In this document: one piece after another, positions 2,475 through 35,539 of the stretch
Numbering within the stretch: position 1 is the stretch's first letter
Layout: each line of letters opens with the position of its first letter
Assembly: GCA_030605265.1 (NCBI GenBank)
Contig: JAUWIR010000001.1
Coordinates: forward strand, 1 to 37,462
Length of the DNA: 37,462 nucleotides
DNA from: Pseudomonadota bacterium
GTDB lineage: Bacteria > SZUA-182 > DTGQ01
Direction: 5' to 3'
Notes under the pieces: model-generated
Database searches by the model: none
What the model saw: the letters and a program-made list of their open reading frames with translations, nothing else
Told to the model about the DNA's origin: nothing
Made by a program: the position numbers and the translations under genes

Positions 2475-3530
2475 TTATCCTCCTATTAATGTTTTATTTC
2501 CTTTTGCCTTAGCCAGCCAGCAAGCGGCGCTGGAATGACCCAACAAGTCGCCGTCTTCAAGATAAGCTAAACCGGGGCATCGAGCACACCAGGATAAATA
2601 ATCACAATTTTTACAACCATGAACATTCTTCATCCGCATTTGGCGAATGTTTAGCATATCCGGTGAATTGTGCCAGATCCAGTTAAAATCGTGATCTCTC
2701 AGATTGCCGGAATTAATGGGCAGTTGCACACAAGGATTGACCTCGCCTTCAGGGGAAATATAACAAATATTATGGCCGGCGCTACAAAGGACGTCATCGT
2801 ATATTTCAGTTATTAAACAAGAAATATTTTCCGGCCTTTCACCTTTTTCTCCACCATAAAAAACCGGATCTTGCAAAACCATTTGCAAATCTTCCTGTGC
2901 TATGCGGTAATTAAGAGTATCTTTATTTCCATCATCCCGCATTGTAATCACCGGATCAAAGGCGCAGCCGGCCCCAAGATCAGTGGCTAAATCATACACT
3001 TTACGATATTCCTTAATATTTTGTCGCATGACGGGACATTTTATCTTTACTGAAATCCCTTTTTCCCGCATTTGCCGAATATTTTTTACAGTCTTTTCCC
3101 AGGATCCGGGAACGCCGGTAATGCCATCGTGTATCTTGGCATTGGCAGCATATAAACTCACGTGTACCTCTTGAAGATGCAGCTTCTGAAAGGCATCTAT
3201 TTCCTTTGTCCCCAACAGGGTCCCATTAGTAAAAACCTTCACTGCAAAATCAAGCGTGCGAGCATAGCGGATAATATCTATTAAATCCTCTCGCAACAAG
3301 ACTTCTCCACCGGATAGGGTCAAGACCAAGCAGCCTGCTTCGGCCAATTGCTCTAAAATCCGATTAATTTCCTCTAAATTTAATTCATGATCAGGAGTTT
3401 TACCTATCCTCCTCTCTCCATCCCTTTTTTCAACACAACAATGAATACATCGAAGATTACATCTCCTAGTCAAATTAATCTGGACGGCAAAGGGGATTTT
3501 TTTCTCCATGGTATGGGCTAAGATATCCAT
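2475..3530 (-). CDS. radical SAM / SPASM-domain peptide-modifying enzyme
   Basis: CNLRCIHC (CxxxCxxC) lies near the N-terminus, followed by GGEVLL. The C-terminal Cys-rich block CSAGHNICYISPEGEVNPC ... CKNCDYLSWCARC is typical of SPASM/twitch auxiliary-cluster domains. Confidence 0.9.
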   Translation of the reverse strand: MDILAHTMEKKIPFAVQINLTRRCNLRCIHCCVEKRDGERRIGKTPDHELNLEEINRILEQLAEAGCLVLTLSGGEVLLREDLIDIIRYARTLDFAVKVFTNGTLLGTKEIDAFQKLHLQEVHVSLYAANAKIHDGITGVPGSWEKTVKNIRQMREKGISVKIKCPVMRQNIKEYRKVYDLATDLGAGCAFDPVITMRDDGNKDTLNYRIAQEDLQMVLQDPVFYGGEKGERPENISCLITEIYDDVLCSAGHNICYISPEGEVNPCVQLPINSGNLRDHDFNWIWHNSPDMLNIRQMRMKNVHGCKNCDYLSWCARCPGLAYLEDGDLLGHSSAACWLAKAKGNKTLIGG

Positions 3531-3539
3531 TTGCTTTGA

Positions 3540-3839
3540 TTAATCCTTTTCTTCTGTCCTATTATCTTGCAGAATCAGCATTCCCTTTGACAATAACTCC
3601 TTCACAAAAGCCTGGCAATCCGTCCTGATTTTTTCATAGTCAACCATTTTATGCTCGTCATGGATAATTGCGGCCATATCTTCAATACTTCTTACTCCAT
3701 CACTTAACTCCCAAATCATTGATCCAATTTCATTGAGGGTATGCAGGGTATTGTCTTCCAAGGTCATGATCACTGCCTGGCCGTCAATTATCCTTGATGC
3801 TGTTTTTTCATTTCTATTTATGTACTTATTATCAATCAT
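3540..3839 (-). CDS. PqqD-family protein (RiPP recognition element)
   Basis: 99 aa. IIDGQAVIMTLEDNTLHTLNEIGSMIWELSDGVRSIEDMAAII follows the PqqD pattern. It sits immediately upstream of the rSAM/SPASM gene, and its start overlaps the upstream gene by 8 nt. Confidence 0.8.
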   Translation of the reverse strand: MIDNKYINRNEKTASRIIDGQAVIMTLEDNTLHTLNEIGSMIWELSDGVRSIEDMAAIIHDEHKMVDYEKIRTDCQAFVKELLSKGMLILQDNRTEEKD

Positions 3840-5073
3840 AAAGAAATCCCCCCTTATTTTCTGTGCATTGCAGCCTCATGATCATTCCTGTTAAAACCAC
3901 GGCAACAAAGGTATTAGCCATAAAGTGAAAATTAAAATCTACCAAGCAATGGATTGAGATAGCTATTAGGCCTCCCATAATTCCCAGCACTAAACTTCGC
4001 AATGTCCTGCTGGGCGCAGTCAAATAACACTTTATACTTTCCTTGAAAATTACTATCATCATCCAAAGAATAAGCAGAAAAGATACCATTCCCCACTCTG
4101 ACATCAATTGCAAATATTCATTATGCGCATAAGTATCTCTAATTTTTTTCTTCAAGTATTTTTCATATACATAGGGAAATGTTCCCGGGCCAGTGCCAAG
4201 AACCGGATAATCATGAATAAGGTCAAGGGTTGCTTGCCAAATTGGCACCCTGCCATTGAATGATTCTATTTCTTTTCTCCTTTTTTGAACAAAAAAGGAA
4301 CTTAGTTGATGATGCACATTATTAAAGCCAAATCCAGTAATAAATAGAAGACACACTAATGCTATTAATAATATCGGAACGAAACTCTTGCCGAGATGTT
4401 GAAATCTATATTTTTTCAAATACATTAATCCCAGTACCATTAAGGCACAAAGTAAAGAAATCCAACCTCCTCTTGAAAGTGTCAGGACAAAGGCTACGAG
4501 CATCATGCAAAGGCCATAGGCAAGAAAAACCTTCTTACCAATATCCATTTCCAAAATTAAAAGAACTATTGCTATTGGGATAATCATCATCAGGAAAGCG
4601 GCCAGATGGTTCGAGTTTGCAAAGGTAGAGGCAAGTTCGTAGCCCAGTCTTCCTTGTGAAGCCCCCAAATATTTAATCAATCCCCAAACAGACAGAAAGG
4701 CCCCTACAGCCATTAGACTGGAGACTAATAGAAAGAGCTGATTTTTTGTTCGTAATTTATTTACCACTGCATAATATACGATAATGTAATCAATAAGTTT
4801 CCAAAAGGCGCCAAAGCTTACAGCAGGCTTTATGGAAAATATGGAAGCAAGGAGAGTTAAACCCACAAAAACCACAATAGGATAATCCAGGGGAGTAGAT
4901 ATAAAATGGCTTTTTTTCTCTACCAGTATCTCCCCAATCCATAATGATAAAAGAATTAAAACCAGGGTATGAACAACACATACGGCCAGCCCTTTTTCTG
5001 TTCCTTTTGCTAATGGAGTGAAAAAGAGGATGCTGATCAGCAGACAGAAAATAAGATTATCGATCTTTTTCAA
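3832..5073 (-). CDS. O-antigen ligase / Wzy_C-family polytopic membrane protein
   Basis: About 10-12 hydrophobic segments. LSRGGWISL and YAHNEYLQLMSEWGMVSF resemble the Wzy_C signature. TTG start. It is translationally coupled to the PqqD gene. Confidence 0.8.
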   Translation of the reverse strand: MKKIDNLIFCLLISILFFTPLAKGTEKGLAVCVVHTLVLILLSLWIGEILVEKKSHFISTPLDYPIVVFVGLTLLASIFSIKPAVSFGAFWKLIDYIIVYYAVVNKLRTKNQLFLLVSSLMAVGAFLSVWGLIKYLGASQGRLGYELASTFANSNHLAAFLMMIIPIAIVLLILEMDIGKKVFLAYGLCMMLVAFVLTLSRGGWISLLCALMVLGLMYLKKYRFQHLGKSFVPILLIALVCLLFITGFGFNNVHHQLSSFFVQKRRKEIESFNGRVPIWQATLDLIHDYPVLGTGPGTFPYVYEKYLKKKIRDTYAHNEYLQLMSEWGMVSFLLILWMMIVIFKESIKCYLTAPSRTLRSLVLGIMGGLIAISIHCLVDFNFHFMANTFVAVVLTGMIMRLQCTENKGGFLYD

Positions 5074-5134
5074 CCGGCTTTCTCTTTGGTTATCTACTAT
5101 GAATGGCCAAGAATTTAACTTTTTATTTTAATCA

Positions 5135-5182
5135 AGAGCATGAAGTCTGATGAAATCTTCATGTCATTCATGCCCTTCATGG
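5135..5182. repeat. hairpin of CATGAAG / CTTCATG words (sister of 2107-2172)
   Basis: AGAGCATGAAGTCTGATGAAATCTTCATGTCATTCATGCCCTTCATGG. It lies between the nucleotidyltransferase stop and the Wzy_C start, next to family A copy 2. Confidence 0.7.
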
Positions 5183-5242
5183 TAATTCCTAAAATTTTAA
5201 AGTTTAAAACTGAGCAATTTTTTATATGCCTTGAACGTTCAG

Positions 5243-18027: not shown

Positions 18028-18866
18028 TCATATTTGGCATACAAGATTAGGATAACCCCTCTCTTTCATCATTGAAAAACTTATTTTTTCAATTTCTCTA
18101 ACCATATTAGTTTCCATTTCTAATTGCCACTTTCCTTTATTATTTCGCATTATTGATGTTGTAGATTTTGCATCTCCTAAATTTTCACTTGGTTTGTGTA
18201 AAACAGCCATATTGCTTTCATATTTGACACCAATAAAATCACAAACAGATTTAAGTATACTTGGAGGATTTTCAATCAAGGACTCATAATTAAGCTCATA
18301 GTAATCCTCTTTCAAGTAATTAAAAGCATCCGATCGGCATTTCCGAATAGCATCAGTCCACATTTGAGCAGATCTGAAAGGGTTTTTATTCCAGGCTTTC
18401 ATATTGGAAAGGCAATGATCGCGAACATCTCTGACAATGTGGATAAACAAGGCTTTTGGAAATAATTCTTTGAGTAATTTTATATTTTGCATGTAATGAG
18501 GCGACTTATCTCCCCATATACTTTTACCCTCACATTCTGCGTATAATCTAAAAAAAGTACTTATTACCCCTGCGTATGAAAAAGTATCTATCTTTTCAAA
18601 CCAATATCTTTTATTAACTATATGAGAATATAATGGACCTTTTTTATCATTTTAAAAAATTCAACTTTGCTAATAAATTGGAAAAATGAATTAAAGTTTT
18701 CAGGAACACTTAAATCTCCAAATTTCGATACAGGATCGGCTAAGTGAGGAATGAAACTCGACTCCCAGAAAGGGATCGAAATTTTTGAGTGCTGAGAAAG
18801 AATTGTACGTAATAGTTTTGTGCCCGATCTTGGTCGCCCTACTATAAAAATTGGTCCTTTGAACAT
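18028..18866 (-). pseudogene. sulfotransferase (PAPS-dependent type) split by a frameshift
   Basis: The N-terminal ORF carries IVGRPRSGTKLL (5'-PSB loop). The downstream ORF, extended upstream in frame, reads ...YWFEKIDTFSYAG...WGDKSPHYMQNIKLLKELFPKALFIHIVRDVRDHCLS (3'-PB region). The frames switch within about 18620-18655, which contains a T6 run at 18640-18645. Confidence 0.75.
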
Positions 18867-20474: not shown

Positions 20475-21887
20475 TCATTCGGATTCTGTATTTTGAAATT
20501 TAAGTCTGATGAGGTTAATATACATGGCGATAATCGGAAAAAGGTGCATATTATGATGATCCGGATAAATTTTTCTTCCGGAAATGGTGCCTGCCAAATA
20601 GTTCAGCAGGCAGACGAACAAAACCCATGCCAGAGGGGAATCTAATTCTTTTGCCAGTGACCATGCTTTTTTCAAAAAGAAAACCAGATAAACCATGACC
20701 AGGGAGAATATAATCAGCCCATTATCCACAAAAAATTCAATAAAGGCATTGTGTGCGCTGTTGGCTTGAAGGATATAGCCTTGGCGATATCGAGGGCTGT
20801 TCATCATGGAAAACCGGCCCACACCTAAAAACAACTGCCTGAGATTATGGAAGCGCTCCATCAATAGGGGCAGCCATATTTTATCTACCCTACCGGTAAG
20901 AACACTGTTCATATCACCTTTTTCAATGCCTGTAGACAACGTCCTTATCAAAAACCCCGGCAACCAGCAAATAAAAATTAAAGCAGACAGACCGATAAAA
21001 GAGAGCATAATGATTCTTTTTTTTAAAAAATAAAGCGTCAATATGATACCACTTAAAAAAACAATGATAGCGCTTCTTGACTGGAGCAATGCGACCGCTA
21101 CAGATGATAGAACGAAATTTGCAACAGAAAGCCTTTTACCAATCACCACTTGCCGGACCAGCAAAGGCGCGACAATAATATAGATACTTCCCACTGAGTT
21201 GTAATGCATTCCGAAAAACTTGCTGATCACATCATTGGTGGCGCCTCTTCCGGCGGTTATGGCTTTGATATTCAGCAAACCCACTATAACAACTGCGCAT
21301 GACAGCATAAAAATGGAATAACAGATTATATCAATGCATCTTTGAATATCTTCTTCTGTCCGAATGTGTTTTAAAATATAAAAAAAGGGGATGATGAACA
21401 AGGCGGGGCGTACCCACTCGGATAATAAATACCTCATGGGTGATCTGTGAAATTTGTCCGGGCCGAACATGACCAGCGTTTGCAAATAGCCAAGAGAGCG
21501 AAAAACCGCAACGCTGAATATTACAAAGTAGCTCGTCAGGAAAATCATACTTTTTTTTTCAATAAGATCTTCATTTTTCAGAAGACTTCCCCCAGAAAAA
21601 AAAAACATCGCAAATGTAAAGGAAGCTATTAAATTAAACGGTTTGGCCCCGGTCAGGCCCATGAGGTTTTTGGAAAAAAAGGGAATGTTGTAAAACGGCA
21701 TAATGAGGAAAAAAAAATAAAGGCTGTATTTTTTATCCCGCACTCCCAACCACGCGATAAAAGGTAGCAGGGCAAGCGCGATTCCTGCTTTTTGACCTGA
21801 AATAATGAGAAAACCGACAATAACGGATAGTAAAATCGTTAAAACGCAAGGTAATAAACTATTTGGAATATGTGTGTTTTTAAGCAT
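20475..21887 (-). CDS. Wzy-type O-antigen/EPS polymerase-like membrane protein
   Basis: About 12 hydrophobic segments. LQSRSAIIVFLSG and NSAHNAFIEFFVDNGLIIF (Wzy_C-like). Confidence 0.75.
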   Translation of the reverse strand: MLKNTHIPNSLLPCVLTILLSVIVGFLIISGQKAGIALALLPFIAWLGVRDKKYSLYFFFLIMPFYNIPFFSKNLMGLTGAKPFNLIASFTFAMFFFSGGSLLKNEDLIEKKSMIFLTSYFVIFSVAVFRSLGYLQTLVMFGPDKFHRSPMRYLLSEWVRPALFIIPFFYILKHIRTEEDIQRCIDIICYSIFMLSCAVVIVGLLNIKAITAGRGATNDVISKFFGMHYNSVGSIYIIVAPLLVRQVVIGKRLSVANFVLSSVAVALLQSRSAIIVFLSGIILTLYFLKKRIIMLSFIGLSALIFICWLPGFLIRTLSTGIEKGDMNSVLTGRVDKIWLPLLMERFHNLRQLFLGVGRFSMMNSPRYRQGYILQANSAHNAFIEFFVDNGLIIFSLVMVYLVFFLKKAWSLAKELDSPLAWVLFVCLLNYLAGTISGRKIYPDHHNMHLFPIIAMYINLIRLKFQNTESE

Positions 21888-23545: not shown

Positions 23546-24570
23546 TTATTTTAATAATTTTATGGTATCTCCAATTCCTACTAAACTTGGTATTCTTGGA
23601 TTTTCAATGAAATCAAGTAAACGCCTGCCAACATACTTTATTCGTAAATTACTGTTTCCAGCAGAAGTGATTTTATTAATTTTTTTTAAATAGTTATCAG
23701 ATAAATATCTATGAAAATATTTTCTTTTAACTTTTATAGTATTGTCTGTAAAATAATACGGTTTTAATAATTTTTTATGAGTAGATAGATCATAAACTAA
23801 TCCAGCAGAACATTTATTCCATATCCTCTGTTTATATTTGTATATCACAAAGGTATATCTGTTAAATTAAAATTTCTGACAGCATTTAGATCTGGAAATA
23901 TAAAATTACCGAGTCCATAGGCAATTATACTCTGGTTATAATCTTCGACTGGTTGTATAGTATGGGCATGATGGCCTATAATAAGGTCGACACCTAAAGT
24001 TGCAATTTTTCTTGCAAGCCTAATTTACTCTTTTGTAGGATAATTGCAATGCTCTATCCCCCAATGTAACTGAACAAATATTTTATCAACCTTCCCGTTT
24101 AAAAATTTGGTATCTTTTTTTATCAATTCATAATCTATCGGTGCCGGACCAAATTTTAAATCTTTTACCTTAGAAATTTGATCATAATAATGCTTATAGC
24201 AATATCCCAGAATTCCTATTTTCAAATTATCCATATCGAAGATAACTGGGTTATTGTAATTGCCGGCAGACTCACCTGCACCAAAATATTTTATATTATT
24301 TTCTTCAAGAAAATTAATTGTATCAATAAAACCATCATTGCCGTAGTCCATTATATGGTTGTTGGCAAGTGAGACCGCCAGAGGTGGTTGTTTGAAAGTG
24401 CCCTTTAAGAATTTTCCTGAAGATTTTAGTACTACATTACCTTCTATCGGAGTATTACATTCTGTTAAAGGAGCTTCGAGATTACAAATCAAAGGGTATT
24501 TTTCCTATGGTATTTTATAAATTTTGTCTAAATAAACGTCTCCTATGAATAAAATCTTATTAAGTCCCAT
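23546..24570 (-). pseudogene. CapA-family (PGA_cap, metallophosphatase-like) capsule synthesis protein with two in-frame stops and a frameshift
   Basis: ATG at 24570 overlaps the flippase stop. The translation reads MGLNKILFIGDVYLDKIYKIP-TAG(24505-24507)-EKYPLICNLEAPLT...LANNHIMDYG...YPTKE-TAA(24025-24027)-IRLARKIATLGVDLIIGHHAH...GLGNFIFP. It stops at 23845-23847, and a different frame continues to 23546. Confidence 0.7.
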
Positions 24571-25867
24571 TTATTTGCACTCTCCCGGCTAAATAAAAAG
24601 CATGTAAAATAAAAAAAAGGTTCATAATTATCCCTGTAATTGAAAACAGGACGATAACAGGAAAGGCCTTTTGAAAAATATAATACCCGCTTACAATCGC
24701 CACAAACCGAAAAATAATATAAACACAATTAAAATACCAGAGAAAACGCAATTTTTGTTTTATTATATAAATTTGATTAGCCGGTGGATTAACAAATGCC
24801 AGGAATAACCAGGGCGCCAGTGCTTGTGCATATAACCCTGCCTCGCACCACTCTTTTCCAAAAATAAAACCAAATATCCATTTTCCCGATATTGTTAAAG
24901 CAGCAAAGGGTATAATCCCTATTAGAGCAAGCCCTAATGTGGTTTTTTTTAAATTATTGTATTGTTCACCCCCTTTGTTTTCAATTTCAGCGGATTTTTG
25001 AAGAAAAATTTTACTTATTGCCTGAGACATAAGATTAACCGGTCTTCGCAAAATCATATTTGCGAGTCCATATAACCCGACAACCTCTTGAGAAAAAAAA
25101 TACCCAAAAAGAAAAACCGGCAAATTTTGGGATATAGCGTTTATAAAGGCGGTAGGCATATTATAACGTGGAAATTTATTGTATTTACGCGCAACATCTT
25201 TAATTCCAGCTAACGTTACAATGTCCCTAATCTGGGGCAAAACATCTGTCAAAAAAATAACAAGGATTATGCTAGATACAATTGGCCCCACAATATTTCC
25301 AAGAATAAGCCAGAATGCTGTTGCCGGAAGCAGAATCCCTGCACAGATTTTGGTGCCTGCAGTTGCAAATGACATTAATACCGTTGATATGGAAATTTGT
25401 CGGAAGTTCTTTAATCTTGTATGAAGGAAGACAAATATATCTCTGCTGCTTACTGCCAAAACTGCAAAAGGAATAAATAATAGATAGTTTTCGTATCCTG
25501 CAAATCCGCATTTTTCAACTACAATTTTTTTTAAAGGTATAATAAAAAGTAAAAGCAAAAATGAGACAAAAACTGCTACAACCAAAGATAACGCAAAAAG
25601 ATCATATCCATTTTTATCTCTTTTAGGCAACACTATTGCAGTCCTGTATCTGAAACAGGCCATAACAGAAAAAATATTCGCACCCGATTGAATAAAAGTC
25701 ATAATGCCGAAATCTTTAGGCGAATAGAGCCTTGTGATAAGTGGAGCAGCAATAAAACCCACTACCTGAGCAGTAACATTTCCTGCAAGCATAGTTGTCG
25801 TGTTTTGAACAAATTTGCTTTCAGTTATTCGTTTTACAAAAGAAATTCCCAGAATTGCATTCATCAT
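24560..25867 (-). CDS. Wzx-type polysaccharide flippase (MOP superfamily)
   Basis: About 12-14 hydrophobic segments with a Polysacc_synt-like layout. I prefer ATG 25867 or 25864 (MMNAILG...) over the TTG at 25897. Confidence 0.8.
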   Translation of the reverse strand: MMNAILGISFVKRITESKFVQNTTTMLAGNVTAQVVGFIAAPLITRLYSPKDFGIMTFIQSGANIFSVMACFRYRTAIVLPKRDKNGYDLFALSLVVAVFVSFLLLLFIIPLKKIVVEKCGFAGYENYLLFIPFAVLAVSSRDIFVFLHTRLKNFRQISISTVLMSFATAGTKICAGILLPATAFWLILGNIVGPIVSSIILVIFLTDVLPQIRDIVTLAGIKDVARKYNKFPRYNMPTAFINAISQNLPVFLFGYFFSQEVVGLYGLANMILRRPVNLMSQAISKIFLQKSAEIENKGGEQYNNLKKTTLGLALIGIIPFAALTISGKWIFGFIFGKEWCEAGLYAQALAPWLFLAFVNPPANQIYIIKQKLRFLWYFNCVYIIFRFVAIVSGYYIFQKAFPVIVLFSITGIIMNLFFILHAFYLAGRVQINGT

Positions 25868-25920
25868 AATATATTTATTGTATTGAATGAAATACAAAGT
25901 TAAACTTTGTATTCTGTAGT

Positions 25921-28541: not shown

Positions 28542-29843
28542 CTAATTCAATTCAGCAGATTGATCAGGTTTCTGCTGATGATAATATCCATAATGGTGAC
28601 GATAATAGCCATAGGAATAATATCCGTTCTTCTTCATATCCAGGCGGTTAAGGATAACGCCGTAAATATTTGCCTTCACAGCTTCAAGTTGCTGTTTGCA
28701 CTTTTGCACACCTTTGCGATTAGACTGCCCCACATGCACCACCAAGATTACTCCATCTACTTGTGAAGACAGGATACAGGCATCGCTTACAGCATTAACC
28801 GGCGGGGAATCAAAAATAATGGTATCGAATCGTTCTTTTAAAATACCAATTAACTCTTGTATTCTTCGAGAACCTAATAATTCCGTTGGATTAGAGGGAA
28901 TCGGCCCTGAATTCAAAATTTTCAAGTTATTTACCGGACAATCTTGAAGATATGAAGAAATCTTTTGATCAATAAAAGGGATATTTTCTGTTTTCAGTTT
29001 CAGCTTTTGAATGTTTTGAAAAAATTCATTATTCCCCCATCCATTCCCGCTAATCGAAGAATAACCCTCTAAAAATCTCTCTTCTTTAAAGGAAAACTTC
29101 CCCTGACGCAGTGAATAAATTTGGCGCAACAGCCCGGCAAGGTGAAGTTTTAAGGGCCCCTCAAGATCTTGAGGAGAAATTAAGTTCATATTCATTAATA
29201 TGGTTCCTAATTTTTCCTGAGCATAAACTTGTCTTTTTAAAGCTTTCATTTGCTGATCCGGAGTTATTTTCCCGCTTTCTATCAATAAGTTGCCAATACG
29301 CTCTTCTTCCGGACGATTTTTCCATTGAGCATCTTTCAAATAACCATCATGAAACCGGAGATGGTAAATTTGACCATTCTCTGAAATAGTCAATAAGCCG
29401 CTTTTACCCTGCATATTTAAAATATGAAACAAATCACCTATGCCATATTGAGAAAGGTCTCCTTCAGTCAGATTAGGAGTATATACATCAATCAAAAGCT
29501 TGGTTAATCCTTGATTGCGGTCATGACCAAATACCTTATAGAGGGAAGGCATCCGCAAGTCCGTATCTAGCAGTAAAACTTTTTGTCCTGCCTGGGCCAT
29601 GGTCAGCGCTAGATTAATGGCCATAGTGGTTTTACCTTCTTGAGGAAAGCTGCTGGTTATCAGCAGAAGTTTGCCTGGTTTTTCATTAAAAGAATAATGA
29701 ATATTTGTGCGTAATGTCTTAAAGGACTCACTAAAAGAAGAGGATAAATTCTCATCAATAATTAGGGAATACGACCCATTATTCCTTTTTGATTTTTTTA
29801 AGGTTTCCTTCTGCTTTTCTTCCGGCTCTTTTATCATTTTCAT
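28542..29843 (-). CDS. BY-type polysaccharide tyrosine autokinase with an inserted DUF4388-like plus MshEN-like (putative c-di-GMP-binding) module
   Basis: Walker A SSFPQEGKTT, Walker A' LLLDTDLR, Walker B TIIFDSPP and a C-terminal Tyr cluster YYSYGYYRHHYGYYH are present. About 180 extra residues (122-300) lie between A' and the SGPIPSNPTELL block. Confidence 0.85.
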   Translation of the reverse strand: MKMIKEPEEKQKETLKKSKRNNGSYSLIIDENLSSSFSESFKTLRTNIHYSFNEKPGKLLLITSSFPQEGKTTMAINLALTMAQAGQKVLLLDTDLRMPSLYKVFGHDRNQGLTKLLIDVYTPNLTEGDLSQYGIGDLFHILNMQGKSGLLTISENGQIYHLRFHDGYLKDAQWKNRPEEERIGNLLIESGKITPDQQMKALKRQVYAQEKLGTILMNMNLISPQDLEGPLKLHLAGLLRQIYSLRQGKFSFKEERFLEGYSSISGNGWGNNEFFQNIQKLKLKTENIPFIDQKISSYLQDCPVNNLKILNSGPIPSNPTELLGSRRIQELIGILKERFDTIIFDSPPVNAVSDACILSSQVDGVILVVHVGQSNRKGVQKCKQQLEAVKANIYGVILNRLDMKKNGYYSYGYYRHHYGYYHQQKPDQSAELN

Positions 29844-29845
29844 GA

Positions 29846-31384
29846 TTAACCCTTTTCCACTTCAGGTACAATTCCCAATACCGGCAATTGAAGATATTGC
29901 TGCACATCTTCTTCCGTTTTAATGCTTGTTTCCAAATATTCCAACAAAAAGGACAACCCAATGCCGGACATAAGCCCTAATATAATCCCCAATATAATAT
30001 TCAATTTCTTTTTAGGTTTTATAGGAAATTTAGGCAAGGCAGCAGGTTCTATAAGACGAATATAAGACTTGCCCATACTTTCGTTTATTTGGGTTTCTTT
30101 AAGCTTATTCAGCATAATCTCGTAAAGACTTTTATTTGTTTCAACCTCTCGTTCTAATACTGCGTATTGAAGCTCCTTCTTATTAGTCAGTAGGGCATCC
30201 TTTTCGTAATCCTTAATGGCCTGCAAAAGGGTATCTCCCTTGGACTGAAGAATAGAATCTTCCGTGAGCATACTGTTATAGGCCTTCCGGAGTTTATTAT
30301 CAAATTCCGCTCTCAGGACTTCGATTCTATTGCTTAAATTCAAGCTTTTGGGGTGCTTATTTTTATATTTTGTTTTCAATGCCTTTAGCTCAATCTGAGT
30401 ATCAGTTAACTCTTTGCCGAGTTCTACTAAAATTGGGTCATTTAAAAGATCCGCTCCACTATATTTTTTATTTCTTCTAGACATAATTTTTTCCAATTCA
30501 GCAATACGGGCTTTCATTTCCATCCGCTGCGTTCTTACCTTGAGGTAAGAAGCGCTCACTTCACCAATCTTTTGGGTATTGATATCTTGTTTTCCCTTGA
30601 TGGAAAAAATTTTATTATCATTTTTAAATTTATAAAACCCTCGTTCAGACTCAGCTAATTTATTCTTCATCTCATTGATCTGTAATGAAATCCAATCCAT
30701 AAATTTATTAGCGGCATTAAAGCGGCTGGTAATATCATACTCTATATAGGCTTCCACTAATCCATTGGCTATTTTTTGCGCCCATACAGGGTCCTCATCC
30801 ATTACACTGATATTAATAAAACGGGTGTCCGGGACCTGTTCAGTGGTTATTTTCTCTTTTAGGCTGGAAACCAAGGCAATCATTTCAGAATTCATTTTCT
30901 GCTCGGAAGACAAATCAAAAGTATCTGCTTGCTCATCAACGCTTTGGTTAAAGGATGGAAAGAAATTTTGAATGGTTTCTTTGAATTTTTTTATATTTTC
31001 CCGAAGGGCTATTTTGAAAGGAGATAAACTCTCTATGGCCTGATTTTTCTGTTTTTCATAACGTTCTTTAAATTGAAGGTTCTTGACTGCTCTCTCAAGC
31101 ACGGGATAGCTGGTGATCGTTTTAAACTGGGTATTAAAGGTAAGCTCTTCAGATAAATAACTCTCGTAATCCAGATATTCTAATTCTCTTCCTGTAACAA
31201 TGGATTTGCTCCTCTCCTTATCAATAATCATCTGGGATTGGGCTTGATAGACGGGAGTTAAAGTGTAATTGCCGATTATGACAGTAGTAACTGTAATAAA
31301 TAAGCAGGCAATGATAAGCCATTTGTTCTTGCGTAAGAGATTCAGGTAATCTAGTAAATGCACTTCCTTTTGCACATCATCCAT
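29846..31384 (-). CDS. Wzz/GumC-type polysaccharide co-polymerase (chain-length determinant), partner of the kinase
   Basis: I prefer ATG 31384 (MDDVQKEVHLLDYLNLLRKNKWLIIACLF...TPVYQA, a Wzz motif plus TM1). It has a long coiled-coil periplasmic region and a C-terminal TM, LNIILGIILGLMSGIGLSFLLEYL. The stop lies 2 nt before the kinase ATG. Confidence 0.85.
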   Translation of the reverse strand: MDDVQKEVHLLDYLNLLRKNKWLIIACLFITVTTVIIGNYTLTPVYQAQSQMIIDKERSKSIVTGRELEYLDYESYLSEELTFNTQFKTITSYPVLERAVKNLQFKERYEKQKNQAIESLSPFKIALRENIKKFKETIQNFFPSFNQSVDEQADTFDLSSEQKMNSEMIALVSSLKEKITTEQVPDTRFINISVMDEDPVWAQKIANGLVEAYIEYDITSRFNAANKFMDWISLQINEMKNKLAESERGFYKFKNDNKIFSIKGKQDINTQKIGEVSASYLKVRTQRMEMKARIAELEKIMSRRNKKYSGADLLNDPILVELGKELTDTQIELKALKTKYKNKHPKSLNLSNRIEVLRAEFDNKLRKAYNSMLTEDSILQSKGDTLLQAIKDYEKDALLTNKKELQYAVLEREVETNKSLYEIMLNKLKETQINESMGKSYIRLIEPAALPKFPIKPKKKLNIILGIILGLMSGIGLSFLLEYLETSIKTEEDVQQYLQLPVLGIVPEVEKG

Positions 31385-31510
31385 ATGGTATTTTTCGCTC
31401 TTAGCCAATAGGTTTAAGAAGTTTCGCCTTTTACTTGCACTACTTCTGCAATACAAAAAACCTAAAATCAAATCTTTAAATACAGTCAGATATTGTTACC
31501 ATATTTCTTT

Positions 31511-32398
31511 TTACCAAAAACTTTCCTGAATGTATAAACGGTCTCCTGGTTGTAATTGGATATCCTGCTTTTTACCCTTCTTAATCTTATTTAGATTAAC
31601 TTTGAATACCTGTTGTTGTCTTCCAATATTTCGGGTTAAAATAGTGCGATTAGGAGCTGCGTTTTTTTCAAAACCTCCAGCCATAATACACGCATTAAGC
31701 GCTGAAAGGCCTTTTTGATAATCATAGGCCCCGGGTTTTTTTACATTGCCTGAAATATATACCTGGTGTTTTAAAATATTGCCGTCTTTCTTTCCAGTAA
31801 AAAAGATGATATCGCCTGATCGGACCGGTATATTATAGGTTAAATTTCCTTTTTTAAGCAATTCATCCAAATCTATAGAAACAGGTTTTATTTCTTCAAT
31901 CAAGGAAGAAATATCCTCATTTGAGGATGTTATTTTTCTATGATCACCTGCTTGAAATATATTGATTTGGCTGCCGATATTATCACTTACCCCACCGGCC
32001 CGAGAAATGATTTCCAATAAAGAAGTGGCGCTGGTAAGAGCATAAAGCCCCGGGCTTTTAATTTCCCCCAAAACCAGGACCTTCTGGCTATGATATTCTT
32101 TGATGGCAACATCTACCTGAGGATCAACCAAATAATCGCTTCCAAGCAGATAGGCGATTTTTTCTTTAACTTGAGAAATTGTCAGGCCTGAAATATGTAC
32201 AGTGTCGAGCAAAGGATAATTAATTTTCCCGTCTTGCGCCACTATAACGTCTTTATCCAAATCCGGCTCCCCCCAAACATTAATTTTTAAAATGTCCCCA
32301 GACCCTATATAATAATTATTTTGGCGTCCCAAAATGATGTTGGGAATAAAAAGAAAAAAAGATATTAATAAACCTATGATTAAACTATAAATTTTCAT
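31511..32398 (-). CDS. Wza-type outer-membrane polysaccharide export protein
   Basis: Signal sequence is present. YYIGSGDILKINVWGEPDL...DGKINYPLLDTVHISGLT is a Poly_export motif, followed by SLBB-like repeats. Confidence 0.9.
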   Translation of the reverse strand: MKIYSLIIGLLISFFLFIPNIILGRQNNYYIGSGDILKINVWGEPDLDKDVIVAQDGKINYPLLDTVHISGLTISQVKEKIAYLLGSDYLVDPQVDVAIKEYHSQKVLVLGEIKSPGLYALTSATSLLEIISRAGGVSDNIGSQINIFQAGDHRKITSSNEDISSLIEEIKPVSIDLDELLKKGNLTYNIPVRSGDIIFFTGKKDGNILKHQVYISGNVKKPGAYDYQKGLSALNACIMAGGFEKNAAPNRTILTRNIGRQQQVFKVNLNKIKKGKKQDIQLQPGDRLYIQESFW

Positions 32399-32629: not shown

Positions 32630-34042
32630 TTAATATGCCCCTTCACGCCGCAAGGAAACCCATAAGGTTTTAGTGAGAATAAAAAAATCATACCATAATG
32701 ACCAATTATCAATATATTTTAAATCCAGCTTTACAATCTCATCAAAATTAGTTATGGAATTTCGCCCGCTCACTTGCCATAACCCTGTTAATCCCGGTTT
32801 CATCGATAAGCGGCGTTTATGCCACAGATCATATTTTTCTACTTCATCCAAAGTAGGGGGGCGAGTCCCCACCAAAGACATTTCTCTTTTTAAGACATTG
32901 ATAAACTGAGGCCATTCATCTAAACTAAATTTCCTTAACAATCCTCCAACTTTGGTAATACGGGGATCATTTTTGATTTTAAATACAGCCCCCTCCAATT
33001 GATTCTCCTTCAGCAATTCCTTTTTTCGCTTTTCCGCATCCTGATACATTGACCGAAATTTAAATAGAGTAAAAATGCGGCCATTTTCCCCTATTCGTTT
33101 TTGCTTAAATAAAACAGGCCCCGGTGATTCAAATTTTATGGCCAGACCAATTACCGGATACATTAAAATAAAAATCAAAGAACCGACCAACCCACCGAAA
33201 ATGTCAACCAGGTTCTTTACCATTCCGTCAAGTGGACTTAATTTAATAGGATAATACGTAATCAAGGGTATTCCATCGATATTCCCTAAAAAGGTACTGG
33301 AAATTTTTACTGCAGGATTTGGTATGGCTACATGAGAGGAGATACCCATGGATTCAATATCGAGAATAGTGCTTTTTAAATCAGTAATTGATTTCTCACA
33401 AGGACAAAAAATAACATTATCTACAGCTTCTTTGAATAAAAGAGCTTTCAGATCGTTAAAGCTCCCCCAAATGGGATATTTTTCTACTATAGTTGAAAAA
33501 AGACCTTCATTTTCATTCCCTTCCTTAACAATGCCAACAATTCGAAGGCCCCAATGAATATTTTCTTCAATACTTGATACAATGCGGCAAGTGGCCCCTG
33601 AAAGCCCTACTATCAATGTTCTGCGATAATTGAAACCTCGAAATCGCAAATGATTAAGCATTAGTCTCATCAGCAACCGCCAGAGCGAGTGCAAACAAAT
33701 CAAAATCAAAACAAAATTGACCATGAAAAAGCGACTGAAGTGCTGAATTCGCCAAAAATAGATAACTAAACTGATAGCCATTAAATTTATGCAGTGAGAG
33801 AGAATTATTCGATTCACCGCCTCCCCAAACGTTTTATATCGAAAATCGTATAGTCCATAAGTGGTAAAGCAAACTGGTATAATGATTAATGAAACTATCA
33901 GAATCCAGACCAAGTCTTTAAACATTGGAGTTCCTTGTATTCCAAAGCGGATAGAGATCCCAAGCCAAAAAGATAAGAAAATTATAATGATATCAAAAAA
34001 TATAAGCATTTGCTTAATACCATAGGAATATTGCTTTAACAT
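32630..34042 (-). CDS. undecaprenyl-phosphate hexose-1-phosphate transferase (WbaP/EpsB-type priming sugar transferase)
   Basis: N-terminal TM bundle. PGPVLFKQKRIGENGRIFTLFKFRSM, SLDEWPQFINVLKREMSLVGTRPP and KPGLTGLWQVSGR are present. A strong SD (AAGGAGGGG) lies upstream. Confidence 0.9.
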   Translation of the reverse strand: MLKQYSYGIKQMLIFFDIIIIFLSFWLGISIRFGIQGTPMFKDLVWILIVSLIIIPVCFTTYGLYDFRYKTFGEAVNRIILSHCINLMAISLVIYFWRIQHFSRFFMVNFVLILICLHSLWRLLMRLMLNHLRFRGFNYRRTLIVGLSGATCRIVSSIEENIHWGLRIVGIVKEGNENEGLFSTIVEKYPIWGSFNDLKALLFKEAVDNVIFCPCEKSITDLKSTILDIESMGISSHVAIPNPAVKISSTFLGNIDGIPLITYYPIKLSPLDGMVKNLVDIFGGLVGSLIFILMYPVIGLAIKFESPGPVLFKQKRIGENGRIFTLFKFRSMYQDAEKRKKELLKENQLEGAVFKIKNDPRITKVGGLLRKFSLDEWPQFINVLKREMSLVGTRPPTLDEVEKYDLWHKRRLSMKPGLTGLWQVSGRNSITNFDEIVKLDLKYIDNWSLWYDFFILTKTLWVSLRREGAY

Positions 34043-34750: not shown

Positions 34751-35539
34751 TCAACAATACTTCTTTTTAAATCCGATAATGCCAATGATCCCCAAGCCAA
34801 GAAGAAACAAAGCACTTGGCTCTGGAACAGGAGAAGTAGTAGCGCCATCCTTTTCAAAATCCCAATAGTATAGGTCATCAGAATAATCTGAAGTACCAAA
34901 GGGATCATACAAGGAACACCAATAATCAGTAGTGGAGAAAGAGAAACTTTTCGGCACTTCCATTAACTCAGATGAATGCATAATTATTTCTCCTGTGCCG
35001 CCCACAGGGATGGCTGATCCTGTCTGGATATCAGCATCAGATCCAGTCCACCCATAATATTCACCGCGCCAAATATTGTTTAAAACTGTATCTGGTGAAA
35101 GTAAAGGTTGCCAAGAAGTCCCATCCCAGTATTCAGCGTAATTTTGGGATAAACAATCATTAACAGAGACTATATAGCAGCCCGGCTCTCCATTTGGACC
35201 TTCCAGAAGATTAGTTGTCAGGGGAAAACTATCCTCATCATAAACGGGATTTCCCCAATAATCAGTGAATGCTTCAGGGAAAAAACCCAGTACATCTAAA
35301 CCATCGACCCAGCCAAAATTAACAATTATATCATCTGCGTGTAAATCCGCCGGGAACCATATTGCCCATGTCCAGATTGGTAAAGTTTCATTATTATGAA
35401 TAGTATAGGTATAAGTCCAATCTCCACTGCTTCCAGTTATTTCTTCAGTCACCATACTTGTAGCATACGCATTTTGGAAAGTTAAAATTATTACAACCAA
35501 AAGGACAAATATGAAAATTGATCTTACTAGCTCTTTCAT
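34751..35539 (-). CDS. PEP-CTERM sorting-domain secreted protein (exosortase substrate)
   Basis: Signal peptide MKELVRSIFIFVLLVVIILTFQNAYA. The C-terminus SPVPEPSALFLLGLGIIGIIGFKKKYC has VPEP, a TM helix and a basic tail. Confidence 0.9.
   Translation of the reverse strand: MKELVRSIFIFVLLVVIILTFQNAYATSMVTEEITGSSGDWTYTYTIHNNETLPIWTWAIWFPADLHADDIIVNFGWVDGLDVLGFFPEAFTDYWGNPVYDEDSFPLTTNLLEGPNGEPGCYIVSVNDCLSQNYAEYWDGTSWQPLLSPDTVLNNIWRGEYYGWTGSDADIQTGSAIPVGGTGEIIMHSSELMEVPKSFSFSTTDYWCSLYDPFGTSDYSDDLYYWDFEKDGATTSPVPEPSALFLLGLGIIGIIGFKKKYC

Follow-up and report, generated by a model that had tools for sequence, protein, structure and literature searches.

A PATAN domain with an MshEN_N-type alpha-clip inserted into the fold of a bacterial tyrosine kinase: a candidate c-di-GMP-sensing module in an exopolysaccharide locus of a Pseudomonadota bacterium

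The window considered here is the whole analysed stretch of 37,462 nucleotides (nt), namely positions 1 to 37,462 of contig JAUWIR010000001.1 from a Pseudomonadota bacterium (GenBank assembly GCA_030605265.1; GTDB lineage Bacteria; SZUA-182; DTGQ01), and the whole of it is one minus-strand exopolysaccharide (EPS) locus. The locus possesses, among others, genes coding for a polysaccharide co-polymerase (PCP), a Wza-like exporter, a priming glycosylphosphotransferase, a flippase and a bacterial tyrosine (BY) kinase, the last of which is the subject of this work. The catalytic domain of this kinase harbors a large insert, which is one known composite module: a complete PATAN domain (DUF4388/PatA_N, ~165 residues) with its usual alpha-clip, a helical bundle of the MshEN_N type, which makes the insert a candidate sensor of cyclic di-GMP (c-di-GMP).

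The initial annotation had read the open reading frame (ORF) as a BY kinase with a large internal insert, and the profile and structure searches agree with this reading. In an NCBIfam scan the CapB/Wzc-type model TIGR01007 scored 198.7 bits on the window kinase against a cut-off of 108.05, matching in two stretches with the insert between them. A sequence search of the PDB retrieved CapB, Etk, VpsO, Wzc and BceF with E-values from 1.8e-42 to about 1e-26, and every strong match was likewise split in two stretches. An AlphaFold2 (AF2) model of the full kinase was built from 27 homologues (mean predicted local distance difference test score, pLDDT, 81; predicted template modelling score, pTM, 0.77), and its comparison with solved structures using Foldseek gave an E-value of 1.8e-13 and target-normalised template modelling (TM) scores of 0.82 for CapA1B1/CapA2B2 and 0.68–0.74 for Wzc (3la6). 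As the overlay on CapA1B1 covers about 395 alignment columns at this TM score of 0.82, the insert is merely looped out of the kinase fold.

Conservation within the kinase family was scored in an alignment of 27 homologues. The residues E69, G70, D93 and D95 are invariant and K71 is nearly so, while G313, D345, P348, G364, G395, L398 and N399 are invariant in the C-terminal part of the kinase. Y409, Y414 and Y418 of the tyrosine cluster are nearly invariant, the tail carrying the cluster being modelled with low pLDDT, as expected. Judging by these residues, the window protein is a BY tyrosine autokinase with intact catalytic motifs, and autophosphorylation activity is predicted for it.

The region 28944–29480, in which the insert was first noticed, corresponds to kinase residues 122–300. 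The kinase domain itself is interrupted by residues ~122–288, at a place where CapB has only ~5 unaligned residues. In the alignment with Staphylococcus aureus CapA1B1 (4jlv), residues 16–120 of the window kinase correspond to residues 41–145 of the chain and residues 298–414 to residues 151–266, with ~177 window residues in place of ~5. Between GLTKLL (residues 112–117) and SGPIPSNPTELL (residues 312–323) there are 194 residues, compared to ~22 in CapB, and the figure of about 180 intervening residues given at the outset was thus roughly right. By sequence alignment the insert replaces residues ~587–605 of Wzc. The insertion site is a surface loop of the P-loop domain: it follows the helix that comes next after Walker A' and alpha4 and precedes the NLxVLxSG strand leading to the PPNP loop, and on this alignment the insert is placed next to the mobile alpha4 and outside the ring interfaces of the kinase (alpha2; alpha7/alpha9). 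Both junctions, W174-x-x-R-P and PF(I/L)xxxI, are highly conserved in the family. In the linker leading back to the kinase, pLDDT falls below 50 at residues 259–270, I295 is nearly invariant, and the alignment with CapB picks up again at residue 298.

The first part of the insert had been suggested to follow the DUF4388 pattern at residues 128–174, and the Pfam model PF14332 (DUF4388/PatA_N) does match residues 127–206 in two stretches with an E-value of 3.8e-18 and 66.1 bits, well above its cut-off of 25. Four residues of this part, namely D137, F164, G167 and W174, are invariant in the 27 homologues. The insert is modelled with a pLDDT of ~88–95 (~90–95 in the first part of the PATAN domain), which comprises strand 127–129, helix 135–145 and strands 149–155, 158–165 and 168–174. 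They are followed by the four helices of the alpha-clip (183–189, 195–208, 212–218 and 224–243), after which strand 249–254, bearing a GxFxF sequence conserved in the family, rejoins the PATAN sheet. A model of the insert alone contains the same elements as the full-kinase model.

The MshE-type motif proposed for the helical segment was recognized by the NCBIfam model NF053729 ('c-di-GMP_motif, MshE-related'), which scored 45.9 bits on residues 182–228 (E-value 3.5e-12), above its curated cut-off of 38, and 50.2 bits on the helical segment alone. When the insert model was compared with the PDB using Foldseek, the top match was chain 5htl_B of 5htl, the structure of MshE with c-di-GMP (probability 1.00, root-mean-square deviation (rmsd) 1.0 Å, 55 columns, 31% identity), and c-di-GMP-bound structures of PilF GSPII-B were found at ranks 4, 5, 12 and 18, the crystal structures among them at an rmsd of about 1.0 Å (1.0–1.1 Å). 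The overlays of the clip on MshE and PilF include 50–55 residues at 27–32% identity, and the sequence of the alpha-clip also matches the N-termini of PilF and PilB. The modelling proposed in the initial annotation gave a confidently folded separate lobe whose helices overlay c-di-GMP-bound MshE and PilF GSPII-B. For the beta part of the PATAN domain there was nothing convincing among the PDB fold matches, and no solved PATAN structure was present in that search.

Two details of the initial annotation had to be revised. First, Pfam PF05157 (T2SSE_N), which was expected to detect an MshEN domain, gave no match to the window kinase at E ≤ 1; only the MshEN_N half is present, the chain rejoining the PATAN domain after helix 4 without MshEN_C (T2SSE_N1). 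Second, the DUF4388-like part and the tandem motif, described there as two elements, belong to one PATAN domain with an internal alpha-clip. The insert is regarded as a single composite module because a strand of the sheet returns after the helices and because free PATAN proteins match the Pfam model across the clip, one of them (P0155) matching the PF14332 profile end to end (positions 1–121) over residues 4–161, clip included. Two separate inserted domains, DUF4388 followed by MshEN, are ruled out by the return of strand 249–254 and by the Pfam model spanning the clip. The features of the kinase and of its neighbors are listed in Table 1.

Table 1 Features of the BY kinase and neighboring polysaccharide genes in the 37,462-nt window. 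Residue numbers refer to the 433-aa kinase.
Feature	Residues	Positions (nt)	Strand	Basis and remarks
BY (bacterial tyrosine) kinase gene; the product is the cytoplasmic subunit, encoded apart from its PCP		28542..29843	(-)	433-aa ORF; TIGR01007, PDB, Foldseek
Kinase N-terminal part	1-121	29481..29843	(-)	aligns to CapA1B1 41-145, Wzc 488-586
EX2(K/R)X2R oligomerisation motif	E39..R45			in the kinase N-terminal part
Walker A SSFPQEGKT	64-72	29628-29654	(-)	
Walker A' VLLLDTDLRMP (hhhhDxDxR type)	89-99	29547-29579	(-)	
GLTKLL helix	112-117			in the kinase N-terminal part
PATAN (DUF4388/PatA_N) domain, first part	127-174	29322..29465	(-)	strand, helix, three strands; PF14332
Alpha-clip, MshEN_N-type four-helix bundle within the PATAN domain	179-243	29115..29309	(-)	NF053729, AF2, Foldseek
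PATAN closing strand after the clip (GKFSFK)	246-256	29076..29108	(-)	strand 249-254 in both models
Linker back to the kinase	257-298	28950..29075	(-)	disordered 259-270; helices 271-281, 289-298; conserved PF(I/L)xxxI
Kinase C-terminal part: NLKILNSGPIPSNPTELL, DGVILVV, GVILN	299-401	28641..28949	(-)	aligns to CapA1B1 151-266, Wzc 606-720
Walker B TIIFDSPPV (hhhhDxxP type)	341-349	28797-28823	(-)	
C-terminal tyrosine cluster YYSYGYYRHHYGYY, autophosphorylation substrate	Y408-Y421	28581..28622	(-)	read from the translation
Polysaccharide co-polymerase (Wzz + GNVR, EpsF-like), membrane partner/activator of the kinase		29846..31471	(-)	PF13807 E 6.1e-16, PF02706 E 2.9e-07
Wza-like outer-membrane polysaccharide export protein (Poly_export + SLBB)		31511..32398	(-)	
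Priming polyprenyl glycosylphosphotransferase (Bac_transf, EPS_sugtrans)		32630..34042	(-)	PF02397 E 2e-62; TIGR03025 392 bits, above cut-off
Wzx-type flippase (Polysacc_synt_3)		24560..25897	(-)	
Two Wzy_C/O-antigen-ligase-like membrane proteins		20475-21887 and 3832-5073	(-)	

The c-di-GMP motif of the clip consists of two 24-residue copies, hereafter I and II, at residues 182–205 and 211–234, joined by the spacer 206–210 (nt 29142–29300), i.e. 53 residues aligning without gaps to NF053729. This is exactly the 24+5+24 arrangement reported initially, and the reading by position was also accurate: copy I keeps R, G3, LI, G10, L21 and Q24, and copy II has K, LG, L6, M7, N10, LI, L17, L21 and H24. 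In the AF2 model R182 and K211 lie just beyond helices 1 and 3, and the helix N-termini consist of the (I/L)-G pairs. In MshE, backbone amides at the helix N-termini read the Hoogsteen edge of guanine, and the placement of R182, K211 and the (I/L)-G pairs in the model corresponds to the geometry by which these amides bind guanine.

Among the 77 kinase-insert proteins compared, the ligand-contact positions of motif I are conserved (I1 R 48 and K 22, I2 L 61, I6 L 77, I21 L 61, I24 Q 55), and the same is true of motif II (II2 L 68, II3 G 70, II6 L 71, II17 L 61, II21 L 72). Three positions distinguish the family from the free PATAN proteins (n = 74): I3 is G in 40 and A in 30 of the kinases compared to G in 72 free proteins, I17 is A in 31, L in 19, V in 10 and Q in 7 compared to L in 70, and II24 is H in 44 and Q in 26 compared to Q in 62. 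The clips of the free PATAN proteins carry a near-perfect motif, I24 being Q in 73/74 and II3 G in 74/74 of them in addition to the three positions just given, and P0155 scores 55.5 bits on NF053729. These closest free relatives (P0155, P0158, P0164 and ~70 others) are ~400–430 aa long with the PATAN domain at residues 4–170.

The architecture recurs, as the survey of domain architectures proposed in the initial annotation revealed. A word-indexed search found ~30 proteins with the kinase-plus-PF14332 architecture at 32–65% identity, all from metagenomes or metagenome-assembled genomes. When the insert profile was run against 1.84 billion cluster representatives, 19,682 matches were obtained at E ≤ 1e-3 and 107 at E ≤ 1e-30. 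Of the best 150 of the 19,682 matches, 50 (39 complete, 11 fragments) are BY kinases that carry the insert at this very site, and in 17 of them, proteins of 869–953 aa, the PCP (Wzz-GNVR) is fused to the kinase; the other 100 are free PATAN proteins, multi-clip proteins and one family 2 glycosyltransferase (GT2) with five clips. Three of the very best matches to the insert profile (P0122, P0124 and P0130, ~1,455–1,490 aa) possess several tandem PATAN domains, most with an alpha-clip, and five DUF4388 stretches were confirmed by Pfam in P0122.

Altogether, at least 67 full-length homologues have the same insert at the same site, whether split from the PCP or fused to it. Each of the 67 matches BY-kinase models; in 20 the kinase is joined to an EpsF-like PCP, and 46 match NF053729 at E ≤ 1e-9, which roughly corresponds to its 38-bit cut-off. 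All the known family members come from uncultured bacteria. A misassembly or a chimeric ORF is ruled out, because homologues at 25–65% identity, split and PCP-fused, carry the insert at the identical site.

The kinase gene belongs to a Wza-PCP-kinase module of the EPS locus. The PCP gene, whose product scores 182.8 bits on TIGR03017, ends with a stop codon 2 nt upstream of the kinase start, and a PCP gene lies directly upstream of the kinase in all five related loci examined. The Wza-like exporter lies directly upstream of the PCP in four of the five, the locus L004 being without an export gene there, and a CpsB-type phosphatase gene is found in one of the five. As the window codes for a Wzx flippase and two Wzy_C proteins, the locus is Wzx/Wzy-dependent. 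The Wzy_C protein at 3832–5073 also matches TIGR03097 (exosortase-A-associated putative O-glycosylation ligase), below cut-off. The other genes of the locus code for a radical SAM protein, a PEP-CTERM protein, a GINT1_N-like protein, methyltransferases, GT1/GT4 glycosyltransferases, a sulfotransferase, two heparinase II/III-like proteins and a UDP-glucose dehydrogenase. ORFs of at least 100 aa are all on the minus strand except two small ones, GC content is ~31–40%, and GC skew is negative beyond the first 2 kb; the co-directional ORFs and the skew fit one long operon-like cluster.

Several further features of the locus should be mentioned. At its head, the ORF 34754–35539 (-) codes for a 262-aa protein ending in a PEP-CTERM sorting motif. 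The PCP and the kinase match XrtA/PEP-CTERM-associated models (EpsF, pepcterm_TyrKin) below their cut-offs, and no exosortase gene was found among the scanned window ORFs of at least 100 aa. The sulfotransferase is split into ORFs 18031–18492 and 18621–18866 (-), which match the Sulfotransfer_3 profile at positions 1–50 and 113–215 with the middle missing, and the split is a frameshift, a pseudogene or an assembly error. The ORF 24028–24492 (-) coding for a 155-aa PGA_cap (capsule synthesis) protein matches the profile at positions 43–208 of 255, so the gene may be truncated; the small ORF 23549–23848 (-) next to it has no family match. The heparinase II/III-like proteins (9033–11021 and 14565–16565, both (-)) are encoded among glycosyltransferases and methyltransferases. 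At the left end of the window, a radical SAM/SPASM protein is encoded beside an HprK-related/ScmC-like protein (1021–1989 and 2478–3530, both (-)), and the pair resembles a peptide-maturation cassette, apparently unrelated to the EPS genes.

According to a 2022 review, BY kinases alternate between two forms, an octameric ring when dephosphorylated and monomers when phosphorylated; alpha2 (EX2RX2R) and alpha7/alpha9 make up the interfaces of the ring, and a rigid-body motion of alpha4 separates the closed, active kinase from the open, inactive one. The explanation we favor, whose chances we consider evenly balanced, is that the window protein is an intact BY kinase with a spliced-in PATAN domain, the clip of which senses c-di-GMP and tunes the kinase. 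The alpha-clip would bind a single molecule of c-di-GMP, probably with sub-micromolar to micromolar affinity because it departs from the consensus. Its occupancy, relayed through the PATAN domain, would bias the open/closed transition of the kinase or its octamer/monomer cycle, and the biased cycle would change phosphorylation of the tyrosine cluster and, with it, polysaccharide polymerisation and export. If a ligand or a partner altered the PATAN lobe, either the open/closed equilibrium or the stability of the ring could shift. The architecture, the homology of its parts, the intact catalytic motifs, the predicted fold, the recurrence of the family and its conserved gene context are shown by the data; ligand binding and coupling to oligomerisation are what we infer here, as is an effect that may go in either direction. 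More tentatively, and with somewhat less confidence than we place in a sensing clip as such, the PATAN/MshEN_N module may be a working sensor which allosterically gates the octamer/monomer phosphorylation cycle and which evolved independently of the N-terminal MshEN_N of EpsG.

Departures similar to those of the window clip are tolerated by proven binders. In PilF GSPII-B the residues at position 1 of the two copies are K and L, yet its dissociation constant is 6 nM, and a single Q-to-E replacement at position 24 leaves binding at 0.46–0.95 µM. In NfrB, a c-di-GMP-activated glycosyltransferase according to NCBIfam, I1 is P, I10 is Q and I24 is R. The relaxed motif published by Wang et al. (2016) is, for both copies, [RKPN]hGxxhhxx[GAS]hhxxxxhxxxhxx[QNKRYWST], with h standing for a hydrophobic set that includes LIVAFYWM and to which Cys was added in this analysis. 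Position 11 of this motif is failed by 39 of 63 free PATAN clips as well, and NfrB fails the motif at I10.

A number of points weigh against ligand binding by the window clip. Four of its residues do not fit the relaxed motif, namely K at I11, Q at I17, N at II10 and H at II24, and the MshE equivalent of I17, Leu25, stacks on guanine. The motif of the kinase inserts is systematically more relaxed than the near-canonical one of their closest free PATAN relatives, which could mean that ligand binding is being lost. In PilF, replacing Gly by Ala weakens binding ~10-fold; in GSPII-A binding is abolished by His/Arg at position 24, by Ser at II1 and by Ala at II3, and GSPII-A with a restored consensus is still a non-binder, because the site is blocked by a capped extension of a helix and by contacts between subdomains. 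The Foldseek E-values of the clip (0.085 and above) are not significant by themselves because the match is short. No gene coding for a GGDEF, EAL or HD-GYP protein was found in the window or beside the homologues in the related loci examined, and no Rfam family, c-di-GMP riboswitches included, was found in the window. Finally, no c-di-GMP binding data for any PATAN alpha-clip or BY kinase were found in the literature searched, which was largely that outside subscription journals. On balance, it is plausible from the residues present that the window clip binds c-di-GMP, with the two outcomes standing about level, and binding is likelier in those family members that have canonical residues.

In one related locus, L005, whose kinase (P0014) is 43% identical to that of the window, a stand-alone 118-aa PilZ gene is located at 4845–5201 (+), ~5 kb upstream of the kinase and ~2.4 kb before the Wza-PCP-kinase block. 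It is the only c-di-GMP-related gene seen close to a family member.

The alternative that survives best, though we consider it unlikely, is that the insert is a partner-docking module for another regulator, for the pilus or motility machinery or for a neighboring kinase protomer, the clip being only a part of the interaction surface. Partner binding is the sole experimentally defined PATAN activity that was found: the PATAN domain of PixE alone binds the N-terminal domain of PilB1 and PilC and suffices for output. The relaxation of the kinase-family motif relative to free PATAN proteins concerns precisely the ligand-contact positions I3, I17 and II24, and PilF GSPII-A is a precedent for a non-binder with the motif present. 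Despite that, many ligand-contact residues that are not obviously required for a helical hairpin are kept at 25–65% identity, namely R/K at position 1, the L-G pair at each of the two helix N-termini and Gln at I24; 46 of the 67 members pass the curated c-di-GMP-motif model; and no candidate partner gene is conserved beside the kinase except the PCP (5/5 loci) and Wza (4/5).

It is rather improbable that the insert is a constitutive structural or oligomerisation lobe without signal input, one which stabilises or spaces the kinase ring or the contact of the PCP with the kinase and has been retained because its removal would destabilise the fold. The constant surface site of the insert agrees with such a role, the highly conserved junctions (W174-x-x-R-P and PF(I/L)xxxI) fit tight packing on the kinase, and the whole-model pTM of 0.77 speaks for a defined orientation of the parts to each other. 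However, a purely structural lobe is not expected to keep a two-motif ligand signature in most members, and PATAN and MshEN_N otherwise occur in signalling proteins. Binding of another nucleotide (3',3'-cyclic GMP-AMP, cGAMP, or another cyclic dinucleotide), with His at II24, Ala at I3 and a non-Leu residue at I17 as signs of retuned specificity, is highly improbable, for although MshEN binds cGAMP weakly and the deviations are family-wide and consistent rather than random (II24 His 44/77, I3 Ala 30/77), the guanine-reading elements (amides at the helix N-termini after L-G, hydrophobic triads) are kept and no MshEN_N with a different preferred ligand was found in the MshE/PilF literature.

If the kinase is indeed tuned by a c-di-GMP-sensing clip, c-di-GMP would act through the module as a direct checkpoint, at the post-translational level, on Wzx/Wzy-dependent export of polysaccharide, and by extension the near-canonical clips of thousands of free PATAN proteins would constitute a large class of candidate c-di-GMP receptors. 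The family offers a testable route to the question of whether c-di-GMP acts directly on regulators of the Wzx/Wzy pathway, in which the BY kinase is the master regulator. It is a purifiable test case, a soluble 433-aa kinase with the candidate sensor in its catalytic domain, with defined sites for mutation (R182, G184, L212 and G213) and a natural set of canonical and relaxed motifs for comparison. The near-perfect motif in many free PATAN clips also bears on how PATAN motility regulators work.

Classical direct control of exopolysaccharide production by c-di-GMP is known from synthase-dependent systems (such as Alg44, BcsA, PelD and NfrB). The initial annotation stated that no characterised c-di-GMP receptor is built into a BY kinase. 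This stands as far as experiment is concerned, since no experimentally shown direct receptor on a BY kinase of Wzx/Wzy systems was found in the literature searched, and the 2022 BY-kinase review contains no occurrence of c-di-GMP or of second messengers; the link itself, however, had been predicted for EpsG. Thus the idea of a BY kinase with a fused, predicted c-di-GMP receptor is not new, because Wang et al. (2016) proposed it for that protein. A PATAN module in a BY kinase, and inserted inside its fold, is undescribed in the literature searched.

With the canonical BY kinases, namely S. aureus CapB, Escherichia coli Wzc and Etk, Vibrio cholerae VpsO and B. cepacia BceF, the window kinase shares the fold, Walker A, A' and B, the helix of the EX2RX2R type, the tyrosine cluster and the pairing with PCP and Wza, but the solved representatives have a loop of ~5–20 residues where the window kinase has ~170. 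The PATAN domain was described by Makarova et al. (2006) as a beta-rich fold interrupted by two repeats of two antiparallel helices, as found at the N-terminus of the ATPases of type II secretion systems and type IV pili. The insert has the same clip-interrupted beta fold as the PF14332 domains of the response regulators PatA, PixE and PixG, and outside the kinases the whole insert is matched best by free PATAN proteins. Known PATAN domains, however, are terminal, stand on their own or are combined with REC or further signalling domains, and have type IV pilus motors as their targets, whereas that of the window is internal to a polysaccharide-export enzyme.

The MshEN domain of V. cholerae MshE (5HTL) and GSPII-B and GSPII-C of Thermus thermophilus PilF share with the window clip the 24+5+24 motif and the four-helix bundle. 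Unlike them, the clip is without MshEN_C/T2SSE_N1, is not part of a T2SSE ATPase and deviates at four motif positions. NfrB of E. coli, whose models are matched by the window clip at positions 480–537, is likewise an enzyme of an exopolysaccharide pathway with an MshEN-type module and is a precedent for MshEN control of polysaccharide production. It is, however, a synthase-type GT2 with a C-terminal full MshEN and no PATAN domain, while the window protein is a kinase of a Wzx/Wzy pathway.

The closest parallel is provided by EpsG-type kinases (TIGR03029; EpsG of Methylobacillus sp. 12S, BAC55137, and Mfla_2024 of Methylobacillus flagellatus), for which the comparison rests on the TIGR03029 profile and the Mfla_2024 fragment printed in Wang et al. 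(2016). These authors described the architecture 'MshEN_N - AAA_31' as EpsG, a proposed chain-length-determinant tyrosine kinase, and listed Mfla_2024 among the predicted c-di-GMP binders. Like the window protein, EpsG is a CapB-like P-loop tyrosine kinase encoded in an EPS locus; it has an EpsF-like PCP as its partner and carries, physically attached, a two-motif four-helix bundle of the MshEN_N type. The N-terminus of Mfla_2024 scores 46.3 bits on NF053729, comparable to the 45.9–50.2 bits of the window, and both proteins have deviant motif residues, among them K at I11 and a His at one of the two positions 24. On the other hand, the bundle of EpsG is N-terminal (TIGR03029 profile ~3–60) and has no PATAN domain, while that of the window lies within a PATAN domain within the kinase fold: the clip matches EpsG profile positions 3–53, yet is located internally, at residues 181–231. 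The window kinase scores only 106.7 bits on TIGR03029 against a cut-off of 313.8 and is therefore not an EpsG equivalog. The two architectures look like independent fusions, which suggests that MshEN_N modules have been recruited to BY kinases at least twice, in the EpsG type and in the window family, and such repeated recruitment argues that the link between c-di-GMP and the kinase is functional.

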